Positions 6,943 through 10,622 of a stretch of DNA of 13,236 bases are shown piece after piece. Each line of letters opens with the position of its first letter. The stretch's first letter is position 1. The translations under genes and the position numbers were made by a program. Under the pieces are notes generated by a model. That model was not told the origin of the DNA and searched no databases. It worked only from the letters and a program-made list of their open reading frames with translations. The DNA comes from Candidatus Hermodarchaeota archaeon (GTDB lineage Archaea; Asgardarchaeota; Hermodarchaeia; Hermodarchaeales; Hermodarchaeaceae), in the NCBI GenBank assembly GCA_016839805.1, contig JAEOTO010000018.1, positions 1 through 13,236 of the forward strand. Reading direction: 5' to 3'.

Positions 6943-7494
6943 CTATTCAATGAGCCCCAAATCACGCATATGATCTGCCAGGAGATAAATGGCTTTCCTG
7001 GTGATGGACTCTTTGTTGGTTCCCGCACAGACTATCCGACCGCTGCTAAAGATGAGGAAGACCGCCTTGGGGGTTTTCATTCGGTAGATAAGCCCGGGGA
7101 AGACTTCGGGTTCATACAAACAGCGTTCTAGTGCCATCTGCGCCATGTCCAGGTCAACCCGACTGTGCAAGTCGCCACTGGCGACGATGTTTTGAATAGT
7201 AATTTTCGGCGTGCCACTAACTGTAATGCCGGCTTTACGGATTTTAGCAATCACATTTTCGACGGCTTTTTCGGCTTCACTTTCCCGGCGTAGACCAGTT
7301 ATAACCATACGACCACTATTGAAGACGAGAATGGTGGCTTTTGGATTTTTCACACGTAACATTAACCCAGGGAATTGTTCAGGGTTATATTCAGCATCAC
7401 GTTGTTTACGGGCAAGAAGATTTAGATCTATTTTCGCATCAACTTCGACGCTGGCAACTACATTTTCAATTTTATATTTCGGCCTCTTAGTCAC
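6943..7494 (-). CDS. tbp: TATA-box-binding protein
   Basis: Two TBP repeats: IENVVAS..YNPEQFPGL..LVFNSGRMVITG and IQNIVAS..YEPEVFPGLIYR..LIFSSGRIVCAG. Start probably GTG 7494 with SD GGAGGTG at 7501-7507; the ORF track uses ATG 7527. Confidence 0.97.
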   Translation of the reverse strand: MTKRPKYKIENVVASVEVDAKIDLNLLARKQRDAEYNPEQFPGLMLRVKNPKATILVFNSGRMVITGLRRESEAEKAVENVIAKIRKAGITVSGTPKITIQNIVASGDLHSRVDLDMAQMALERCLYEPEVFPGLIYRMKTPKAVFLIFSSGRIVCAGTNKESITRKAIYLLADHMRDLGLIE

Positions 7495-7526
7495 GAAGGA
7501 CACCTCCCAGTCCAGCTGAGTGTGCA

Positions 7527-7556
7527 TTTATAAACCGTTTATAAACTCTTTATAAA
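7527..7556. repeat. Three palindromic TATA boxes (TTTATAAA) at an exact 11-bp period
   Basis: TTTATAAA at 7527-7534, 7538-7545 and 7549-7556. Confidence 0.9.
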
Positions 7557-7568
7557 GCAGCGATTGCC

Positions 7569-7583
7569 CTTATAAACTTTTTA
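7569..7583 (-). promoter_or_regulatory. Predicted tbp core promoter (BRE + TATA)
   Basis: The minus strand reads TAAAAAG-TTTATAAG, the same AAAAGTTTATAA core as the promoter at 960-971. Confidence 0.65.
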
Positions 7584-7592
7584 TAGTGTCCG
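7580..7592 (+). promoter_or_regulatory. Candidate TAM (TTTAT) plus seed target (AGTGTCCG) of the neighbouring omegaRNA guide
   Basis: TTTAT 7580-7584 is followed by AGTGTCCG 7585-7592, identical to 7806-7813. Confidence 0.65.
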
Positions 7593-7650
7593 GGAGAAGA
7601 TCTGGTCCTTCAAGGCTAGAATAAATCGCGGAGTTTAAATTGCTCAATCC

Positions 7651-7821
7651 GTAGGTAGGGGTGAGGTCCCGATTAGCTGTCCGAGAACCAAGGCGCAGTA
7701 TGGTCGGGCAACATCGCCGGAACGGCGAGTAGAGCCTGTGGACCAGTTGACAATGGTCGATGGCATGAAGCAGGAAGCCCCGTCCCTTAGGATTGGGTAG
7801 TTCACAGTGTCCGCTTACCAA
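7651..7821 (+). ncRNA. Orphan TnpB-type omegaRNA/reRNA (scaffold about 7651-7805, guide from 7806; ends approximate)
   Basis: Ordered hallmarks GTAGGG..CCCGA, GCCTGTGGA (7734-7742), ATGAAGCAGGAAGCCCC, a subterminal hairpin (7777-7798) and GTAGTTCAC ending at 7805. Loop GTGA (7661-7664) is complementary to terminal TCAC, giving a pseudoknot. CCTG (7735-7738) pairs with CAGG (7771-7774). Confidence 0.8.
7765..7805 (+). mobile_element. IS200/IS605-family right end, with no tnpA, tnpB or recognisable left end
   Basis: ATGAAGCAGGAAGCCCCGTCCCTTAGGATTGGGTAGTTCAC: an imperfect palindrome followed by the TCAC end motif, as in IS605/IS1341-type right ends. Confidence 0.8.
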
Positions 7822-7825
7822 CATT

Positions 7826-7860
7826 AAAAAAGGGGAGAGTTCGGCTCTTCCAGAGCCGAA
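7826..7860 (-). terminator. Likely cdc48 terminator: 9-bp hairpin followed by a T6 tract
   Basis: TTCGGCTCT-TCC-AGAGCCGAA (7840-7860) lies about 20 bp after the cdc48 stop. A6 at 7826-7831 reads as T6 on the minus strand. Confidence 0.65.
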
Positions 7861-7879
7861 ATTGGCAGTGTGTACTCGA

Positions 7880-10132
7880 TTAGGCATAAGGGCCTGGTGT
7901 TGTGCTAATAGCGTCGCGTTTTGTGGACATCGCTACAGTATATTCCTCGTAGGCTTTCAACATTTCTGGGGTGATACTGGGTTTTATTTTGTCGAGGGCA
8001 GATTCAAAGTGTTTAGCTTTGACAATAGCTGCGTCTTCTTCAGTACGGATGGCATACATACCTGCTTCACGAACGACATTTGCGAGATCAGCGCCAGAGT
8101 AGCCTTCAGTGATTTTAGCGATTTTTTGAAGGTCTACGTCATCGTGTAGTGGCATATTGCGTGTATGAACTTGGAGAATTTCTAAGCGTGCTTCTTGATC
8201 AGGTGCAGGGACGAGGATGATTCGGTCGAAGCGACCAGGTCGCAGGAGAGCCTTGTCAATGATTTCGGGGCGATTGGTCGCAGCGATAACAACGACGTTT
8301 TTGAGTTCTTCCATCCCGTCTAATTCAGCGAGTAGCTGATTAAGAACGGTTTCGTAGACATGGCTGCCATGCCACTGACCCCGAGCAGGGGCTAGACTAT
8401 CAAGCTCGTCGAAAAAGATAATGCTGGGAGCTACTTGTCGAGCTTTTCGAAAGATTTTCCGAATGCCTTTTTCAGATTCACCAACCCATTTACTGAAGAT
8501 TTCAGGACCACGGATAGCTATGAAGTTGGCTTCGCTCTCGGTGGCTACTGCTTTTGCCAGAAGGGTCTTCCCTCCACCAGGCGGACCCACAAGGAGAATT
8601 CCCTTTGGGGGATCGACACCTACTTTTTCGAATTTACTAGGATATTTGAGTGGCCATTCGACAGCTTCCCGTAATTCCTCTTGCACGTCCTTTAAGCCAC
8701 CAACATCTTCCCAAGAGACTTTGGGGATTTCAAGGTAGACTTCTCGCATAGCCGATGGTTCCGCCCTACGGAGAGACTCATCAAAGTCTGCTCCAGTGAC
8801 TTCGAGATCCTCAATAATTTCAGGCGCAATAGGGTGGTCCTCATCTAAATTGATTTTCGGTAGGATACGACGAAGCGTATTCATAGCCGCTTCACGTGCA
8901 ATTGCAGCGAGATCAGCACCCACCATACCATGCGTTGCATCAGCTAGTTGGTCAAGATCCACGTCTTTCGTAAGGGGCATTCCACGAGTGTGGATGAGTA
9001 AGACTTCTTTGCGTCCACTTCGGGTTGGAACGGGAATTTCAATTTCTCGATCGAATCGTCCCGGACGTCGTAGAGCAGGATCTAAGGCCCCTTCGCGATT
9101 AGTCGCAGCGATGACAATAACGCGTCCTCGGGCTTGAAGGCCATCCATAAGAGCAAGAAGCTGAGCGACAACTCGGCGTTCCACTTCACCTTGAACTTCT
9201 TCACGTTTAGGTGCAATACTATCAATTTCATCAATGAAAATAATGCTAGGTGCTTGTTGAGACGCCTTGTCGAAGAGCTCACGAAGGCGTTTTTCAGATT
9301 CACCATAGAATTTACTCATGATTTCGGGACCGTTAATGGAAATAAACGTAGCATCTGATTCATTGGCAACAGCCCGTGCGAGAAGGGTTTTCCCAGTCCC
9401 AGGTGGACCAAACAAAAGGACTCCCTTAGGTGGATCAATACCAAGACGGTCGAAGAGTTCGGGATGTTTCAGGGGAAGTTCTATCATTTCGCGGACACGA
9501 GCAATGGCTTCATCTAAGCCACCAATATCTTCGTATGTTACGATAGGAGCTTTAGCGGTTACTTCCACCGCTTCGGGTTGAATTTGGATAATTGTATCTT
9601 CAGTAATTTTAACAACGCCTTTAGGCGTGGTGTTCGTGACGACGAATTTGATTTCCCCAAGAGCAAAAGGCGCTCCTGCACTTCGCATCATTGCTTCAAA
9701 CAATGAATAATCGTCACTACGGTAAGCCCCAGCTCCTGCGGTGCTAATAATATCACCGGGAGCAACCGGACGTTGATTCAGACTAGGTTTTACAGCATCC
9801 CCTTCAGCGACAATTCTGACACCGCGTTGGGCGGGAGCTAAGACAACCCGCTTAGCCACCGGAGGATCAATCCGTTTAACTTCAATAAATTCACCAATTC
9901 CAGTTCCTGAGTTATTACGCACAAGTCCGTCCATGAATATTTTTCCTGATCCAGCATGAATCGATTGTCCACGCCAAACCCTAGCACCAGTAGTTTTTTT
10001 CCCAATAATCTCAATGATGTCTCCAGAGGTAACACCCAATCGTTCCATGACTTTCGGATCAACGCGAACGATACCTCGTCCAGCTTCGTCGCTGGGGAGT
10101 GAGACAACTCGAAGTTGAATTTTTTCAGGCAT
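7880..10132 (-). CDS. cdc48: Cdc48/VCP/VAT AAA+ ATPase
   Basis: 750 aa with N-domain (GRGIVRVD). D1 has [24 protein letters not shown] and D2 has [23 protein letters not shown]-terminal ...PYA. Confidence 0.97.
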
Positions 10133-10570: not shown

Positions 10571-10622
10571 TATATAGCGTAACTATATAGTATGACAAAG
10601 CAGTAATACTATTCTTTATAAA
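10571..10622 (-). promoter_or_regulatory. padR-cdc48 promoter with candidate PadR operator palindromes
   Basis: TTTATAAA at 10615-10622. Inverted repeats TATATAG-N5-CTATATA (10571-10589) and ATAGTAT-N12-ATACTAT (10587-10612). Confidence 0.65.

Follow-up and report, generated by a model that had tools for sequence, protein, structure and literature searches.

Introduction

Several archaeal regulators act on the genes that encode them. LrpA of Pyrococcus, Lrs14 of Sulfolobus and MDR1 of Archaeoglobus are autoregulated repressors that occlude their own core promoters. In eukaryotes, tandem TATA elements are found at yeast HIS3, where TC and TR give differential or regulated initiation, and the TBP gene of Acanthamoeba has a regulator, TPBF. 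To our knowledge, eukaryotic TBP genes are controlled through dedicated factors and not through arrays of TATA boxes. Feedback by a general factor has come up in Sulfolobus, where auto-activation of its own promoter has been proposed for TFB2 (2026 preprint, doi 10.64898/2026.09.06.749720). Burton has presented a hypothetical primordial promoter with three TATAAAAG boxes and four BREs (PMC4802759); this model is theoretical, concerns the promoters of the last universal ancestor, and predicts that in modern archaea multiple TATA boxes are selected against.

TBP is needed for the transcription of every archaeal gene, its own included. How its level is set in archaea is not addressed in the literature that we could search, and full-text searches outside the subscription journals found neither a TATA array at tbp nor autoregulation of an archaeal TBP. 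Here we report an array of five TATA boxes directly upstream of tbp in a Candidatus Hermodarchaeota (Asgard) archaeon. The window, i.e. the whole stretch of DNA that was analysed, comprises 13,236 nucleotides and belongs to a metagenome-derived assembly of 2.31 Mb (43.8% GC, 87% complete).

Layout of the tbp upstream region

The five boxes are TTTATAAA at 7527-7534, 7538-7545 and 7549-7556, CTTATAAA at 7569-7576 and TTTATAGT at 7580-7587, with start-to-start spacings of 11, 11, 20 and 11 bp. Their positions and the 11-bp spacing within the two groups are those given by the first-pass annotation of this DNA. The fifth box keeps its place near 7580 but is read differently on the tbp strand, as CTATAAAAAG from 7586 to 7577. 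Along the tbp strand the order is A, B, GGG, a 12-nt spacer, C, D, E, GCACAC, the Shine-Dalgarno (SD) sequence and GTG, and the elements of the region are as follows.

cdc48, 7880-10132, minus strand: Cdc48-type AAA ATPase gene, upstream neighbour of tbp on the same strand, itself preceded by a PadR-family gene
Omega-type repeat, 7580 to ~7805-7821, plus strand: orphan IS605-type right-end or omegaRNA-like repeat, abutting box A (TTTAT, 7580-7584)
Box A, 7577-7586, minus strand: CTATAAAAAG on the tbp strand
Box B, 7569-7576, minus strand: TTTATAAG on the tbp strand, then GGG (invariant); predicted start ~7545-7547
Box C, 7549-7556, minus strand: TTTATAAA here; CTATAAAA, GTTATAAA or similar in relatives
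Box D, 7538-7545, minus strand: TTTATAAA here; CTTTAAAAAG in most relatives
Box E, 7527-7534, minus strand: TTTATAAA, a palindrome; the box nearest tbp, ending 18 nt upstream of the SD
GCACAC, 7520-7525, minus strand: conserved, directly downstream of box E
Shine-Dalgarno sequence GGGAGGTG, 7501-7508, minus strand: 6 nt upstream of the GTG, with its GGAGG core 8 nt from the GTG
tbp, 6943-7494, minus strand: 183 aa from the GTG at 7494; Pfam TBP PF00352, E = 9.5e-57, two repeats

The start of tbp had been placed at the ATG at 7527 (open reading frame 6943-7527), which overlaps box E. We reject this assignment because the ATG is absent from most relatives, because the interval from this ATG to the GTG at 7494 has indels that are not multiples of three, and because a conserved SD accompanies that GTG. 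Across the 18 genomes compared below, GGAGG is kept at a distance of 6-8 nt ahead of the start codon, which is GTG or TTG.

The octamer TTTAWAWR is matched by the three exact TTTATAAA boxes and, on the tbp strand, by TTTATAAG and TATAAAAA. The predicted sites are consensus TATA boxes and the gene product is a canonical TBP, a match in specificity by sequence. An A/purine-rich, BRE-like stretch lies upstream, on the tbp strand, of box B (AAAAAG), box D (AAAGAG) and box E (AAACGG), and is missing from box C (CGCTGC); for comparison, the tRNA promoters of this genome have BREs of the AAA(C/G) type. The AAAAAG run of box A occupies exactly the position expected of the BRE (TFB recognition element) for box B. 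The box at 7569 had been singled out as having the clearest A-rich BRE, and the near-invariance of this block in 18 genomes bears this out. Judged from sequence, box B together with the A-rich stretch before it is the strongest candidate for the core promoter of tbp. Read on the plus strand (CTTTTTATAG), box A is similar to the tRNA-type TATA boxes of the same genome.

Start sites were predicted at the usual distance of ~23 nt from the octamer end (canonical range about 23-27 nt downstream of the box). This places the start from box B at ~7545, in agreement with the earlier proposal of a start near this position with the three perfect boxes lying over it; relative to this predicted start, boxes C to E span ~-11 to +20. 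Box C (~-11 to -4 relative to the box B start), if used as TATA box, would direct initiation at the conserved GCACAC (~7523-7525), which may be an initiator for such a start or a conserved leader element. The start predicted from box D is at ~7511-7514, with a leader of 17-19 nt including the SD, and that from box E at ~7502-7504, within the SD. The leader itself gave no sign of a switch at the RNA level, as the fold of 7485-7546 on the minus strand has z = -0.10 against shuffles. A search of Rfam relaxed to E = 10 found no RNA family, either in the window as a whole or in the interval 7450-7950, and the window contains no tRNA genes.

These predictions raise the question whether the array is a stack of alternative promoters without feedback, in which boxes B, C, D and perhaps E each have their own start, so that tbp is kept on under all regimes of TBP and TFB paralogues or is simply expressed robustly. 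The BRE-like elements upstream of the boxes, box C (CGCTGC) excepted, would fit such a stack, as would the predicted starts, which coincide with GCACAC for box C and with ACTGGGAGG for box D, positions that are plausible or conserved. Box E, on the other hand, is too near the start codon to yield a translatable mRNA. The distribution of the array, to which we now turn, bears on this explanation as well.

Rarity within the genome

The word TTTATAAA occurs four times in the window, compared with 0.23 expected by shuffling, and none of 200 shuffles reached four. The whole assembly of 2.31 Mb has 20 such sites, three of them within the tbp array, which is the sole position in the genome with at least two TTTATAAA inside 40 nt. 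When one mismatch to TTTATAAA was allowed (1164 matches), the tbp array was the only chain of at least three boxes. A broader definition, with at most one mismatch to TTTATATA, TTTATAAA, TTTAAATA or TTTAAAAA on either strand, again gave the tbp array, with its five boxes, the top rank in the genome; four boxes were reached at two other places only, where they are poor.

Thirteen of the 20 TTTATAAA sites lie outside long open frames, which is 8% of the DNA, and on this account the word behaves as a promoter signal. We also considered a strong depletion of TTTATAAA from the genome; this is true in part only, the count on both strands being 40 against 48-82 expected under Markov models of order 3 to 6. 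Ordinary promoters in this genome, such as those of tRNA genes, have weaker boxes of the type AAAG-TCTTTAAAGG. The fourth TTTATAAA of the window, at 10615-10622, is situated just upstream of the padR-cdc48 pair and is probably the TATA box of that operon.

If the array were a matter of promoter strength alone, other highly expressed genes should carry arrays too. In this genome, the regions upstream of six TFB paralogue genes and of two additional copies of tbp have none. TFB (TFIIB) paralogues number at least six here (contigs C21, C22, C27, C42, C23, C26 and C44), two of them in tandem on C21, a large set for a genome of 2.3 Mb. Besides the main tbp there are two or three paralogues with 83-91% identity to it, all located at contig ends (C19:2-502, C20:9211-9711 and C1:12936-13097) and perhaps parts of a repeated or mobile element. 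The copies on C19 and C20 have a common upstream region that differs from that of the main locus and is without a TATA array. We also note a tRNA-Pyl gene called by ARAGORN on the minus strand of contig C22 at ~264781. For the stack of alternative promoters, a complement of at least six TFB and three to four TBP paralogues is a point in favour, as it supplies the regimes under which tbp would have to be kept on; that the array occurs in this genome at tbp only is left unexplained by it.

The same counts bear on the idea that a single box binds TBP and that the remaining ones are strength or melting elements, i.e. A/T-rich proximal elements, a melting region or curved DNA. Archaeal promoters are known to gain strength from A/T-rich sequence immediately upstream of the start, so a downstream box could act without binding TBP. 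Boxes located ~20-22 bp downstream of another box do fall at -11 to -2 relative to the predicted start, where such proximal elements boost archaeal promoters, and A-runs phased at 11 bp can curve DNA. However, the additional elements are full consensus TATA octamers, often perfect palindromes, and not generic A/T sequence. Such pairs are nearly missing from other promoters here: non-overlapping pairs of exact-core boxes inside 40 nt number nine in the whole genome, and three of these belong to the tbp array. Upstream boxes such as A would, moreover, be outside any melted region. We consider this explanation improbable.

Conservation in the Hermod family

Orthologues of tbp with 93-99% identity were identified in 14 other genomes of the genus and in four of the sister genus, and upstream sequence was obtained for 17. 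The first-pass annotation had named absence from relatives as grounds for refutation; the array is present in all 17 other genomes, genus and sister genus together, while the adjoining flank has diverged. In all 18 Hermod genomes cdc48 lies upstream of tbp on the same strand and in the same order. Homology between the relatives ends just upstream of box A. Conservation, measured as mean majority-base frequency, rises from 0.50 in the flank to 0.93 in the A-B block, with 0.66 for the spacer and 0.83 to 0.88 for boxes C, D and E; GCACAC scores 0.93 within the genus and the SD 0.89.

The distal pair TATAAAAAG-TTTATAAGGG (A-B) is nearly invariant across the 18 genomes. Counted box by box, B and D are TATA-like in all 18, A and E in 15, and C, the least conserved, in 11 by a strict rule, with recognisably similar sequence in most of the remaining members of the genus. 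Not every box can be essential, since E is degenerate in three of the 18 family genomes and C in several. Three perfect palindromes, as first described, are present here and in the closest relative only; the middle one reads CTTTAAAAAG in most relatives. The proximal boxes thus vary among TTTATAAA, CTATAAAA, CTTTAAAAAG and GTTATAAA but mostly remain TATA-like, which is the pattern that would be expected of selection for TBP binding and not for one exact word.

Spacing is kept in part. The intervals A-B, C-D and D-E are 11 bp in both Hermod genera, whereas B-C measures 20 bp in the genus but 33 bp in its sister, where box E and the SD are also set further apart by ~19 nucleotides. Repeats of a motif at roughly one helical turn are a usual feature of cooperative archaeal regulators, and the conserved A-B, C-D and D-E spacings could accordingly be taken to mark an operator array for a different sequence-specific regulator that recognises a repeated TTTATAAAC-like unit. 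The drift of the box sequences within the limits of TATA-likeness does not fit such a regulator well, and there is no linked candidate gene for it, the nearby PadR gene sitting with cdc48. The same architecture also recurs in three phyla with other sequences and spacings (see below), for which the universal TBP is the better fit. An operator for another protein is quite improbable in our estimation.

The neighbouring omegaRNA-like repeat

The spacer between cdc48 and tbp measures 386 nt in this genome, of which ~215 nt are inserted, and 157-180 nt in the 17 relatives. The inserted sequence is an orphan IS605-type right-end or omegaRNA-like element. There are ten further copies in the genome, most of them ending at the position equivalent to ~7805, and at a copy on contig C41 (L160 491-1696, minus strand) there is overlap with the 3' end of a gene for a 401-aa TnpB with OrfB_IS605, Cas12f1-like TNB and HTH domains. 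The element next to tbp seems to have used a TATA box as its target for insertion.

The first-pass annotation had suggested that the array might consist of bidirectional promoters that also drive the omegaRNA. The plus strand does present AAAC-TTTTTATAG (7574-7586), which resembles the tRNA promoters of this genome and points into the repeat. An exact TATA pair 10 bp apart (TTTAAATA and TTTTTAAA, C2:17621-17638) is also found ~20 nt upstream of another copy of the repeat (C2:17651-17800), and may be the promoter for the RNA of that copy. As a conserved function of the array this is nonetheless refuted: the insertion is restricted to this genome, and all 17 relatives keep the array with neither the repeat nor a divergent gene, one of them with an identical array. 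The array did not, then, evolve to drive the repeat. That it was made as a bidirectional promoter for the divergent element is very improbable indeed; use of box A on the plus strand to drive the repeat could be secondary and incidental at most.

Survey beyond the family

We extended the survey to ~50 further Asgard genomes from more than 20 families, counting boxes over the 250 nt that precede the conserved TBP core, and to the TACK and Nanoarchaeota/DPANN groups, which were entered via the tbp loci of Cenarchaeum and Nanoarchaeum. By our own definition of a box, and with related genomes being non-independent samples, at least three boxes within 70 nt were present upstream of tbp in 34 of 40 Asgard genera (one locus per genus) versus 27 of 133 other intergenic segments of the same loci, most of these 27 coming from AT-rich Loki-like genomes with their high background. 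In 26 genera the tbp upstream region ranked strictly above every other intergenic segment of its locus. TACK tbp loci had at least three boxes in 20 of 32 cases and at least two in 30 of 32 (other intergenic segments with at least three: 2/27), and at Nanoarchaeota/DPANN tbp loci at least three boxes were seen in 27 of 30. The sequences upstream of tbp cannot be aligned between families; the architecture recurs nonetheless.

One large Asgard family (f6) includes 14 or more genera with a three-box layout. In each of the 14 that were checked, the proximal box abuts the SD, its end lying 13-19 nt from the ATG, and is placed at ~-9 to -2 of the start predicted from the next box upstream. With this position it would give no translatable mRNA and is not a productive promoter. 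The geometry is matched in our genome by box E relative to box C (22 bp) and by box C relative to box B (20 bp). In another Asgard family (f9; L030, L031, L093, L100, L101 and L108), AT-rich and Loki-like, the TBPs have long acidic (E/D-rich) N-terminal extensions before the core, which puts the tbp promoter 100-150 nt further upstream.

Same-face phasing of the boxes had been part of the initial description. In the Hermod family the 11-bp interval is kept for A-B, C-D and D-E, but not for B-C. Adjacent boxes in the tbp arrays of other lineages are 9-22 bp apart with no helical periodicity, so a period of 11 bp is peculiar to the Hermod family and not a general rule.

The survey also weighs on the stack of alternative promoters, which gives no account of why such arrays should recur at tbp in three phyla. 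They are present in small DPANN genomes too, in which the two Pfam TBP matches per genome are the two repeats of a single tbp and not paralogues to be accommodated, and the f6 proximal boxes, like box E, are too near the start codon for a translatable mRNA. We consider it unlikely that stacked promoters without feedback account for the array, though of the rival explanations this is the most probable.

A promoter that may sense the level of TBP

The association of the array with tbp, both in this genome and across three phyla, and the presence of some boxes at unproductive positions make it the simplest reading that the level of TBP feeds back on tbp. In this reading the array is the core-promoter region of tbp and senses the level of its own product, with the distal unit being productive and the downstream boxes limiting. 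On the evidence of sequence we would put its likelihood a little short of even.

The 60-bp array may be viewed as a series of overlapping BRE/TATA units, in which the A-run at the 3' end of one box would act as BRE-like element for the box 11 bp downstream. The invariant distal unit, with box A as BRE and box B as TATA box, would assemble the productive initiation complex, and initiation near 7545 would yield a leader of ~50 nt that carries the SD. Boxes C, D and E would be additional consensus TBP sites at ~-11 to +20 of the box-B promoter. At low TBP, the high-affinity sites would keep tbp transcribed. At high TBP, the downstream boxes would be filled as well by TBP (with TFB), and would then either block the loading of polymerase at the productive start or give starts that lose the leader and the SD. 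In either case the output of tbp would be held down.

Footprints of TBP and TFB are ~20-25 bp, so boxes 11 bp apart are probably not all filled by TBP-TFB at once, and the original formulation that excess TBP fills all sites is too simple. The occupancy of each box by TBP and the start sites are predictions, and we infer both the feedback and its sign; the feedback could be positive, with the array giving tbp priority access to scarce TBP.

If this reading is true, a general transcription factor would be its own repressor or homeostat by means of copies of a core-promoter element. The question of how the TBP level is set becomes directly testable with a cis-element that is present once in the genome and is met again at tbp in three phyla, where no sequence homology links the lineages. 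A further and more tentative possibility is that the TATA arrays of tbp represent an ancient circuit, common to Asgard, TACK and DPANN archaea, in which TBP sets its own level with extra core-promoter sites as concentration sensor and no dedicated regulator. Such a circuit may date to the common ancestor of Archaea, and hence have been present in the lineage that founded the eukaryotes; we see this as possible, and doubtful enough to be put forward with reserve.

Comparison with known systems

The tbp upstream region has much in common with the canonical archaeal BRE/TATA promoter, as known from SSV1 T6 and the Pyrococcus TBP-TFB-DNA complex: a TTTAWAWR box, an A/purine-rich BRE, the sense orientation and room for a leader with an SD. 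It differs in having five overlapping units in place of one box, several of them misplaced for a translatable mRNA, and no other gene in the genome has its boxes so clustered.

We view the feature as a putative autoregulatory promoter whose regulator would be a general factor, TBP. It would thereby be akin to the promoters of LrpA, Lrs14 and MDR1, at which the gene product binds over the TATA box and the start or just past them, as is predicted here for TBP. Unlike in these systems, the presumed autoregulator is the general factor TBP, and the putative operators are copies of the core promoter. Another parallel is Sulfolobus TFB2, a general initiation factor acting on the promoter of its own gene in a feedback loop, as is proposed here for TBP. 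In that case, however, the feedback is positive, is exerted by a specialised TFB paralogue and is experimental, and no array of repeated elements has been described. The eukaryotic cases resemble the present one in having more than one TATA element or a TBP gene under special control, in organisms and with a transcription machinery that differ from those considered here. With the primordial promoter of Burton the array shares the alternation of BRE-like and TATA units, and TATAAAAAG-TTTATAAG is strikingly similar to it; in contrast to the loss of multiple boxes that the model predicts for modern archaea, multiplicity has been retained here, specifically at tbp.
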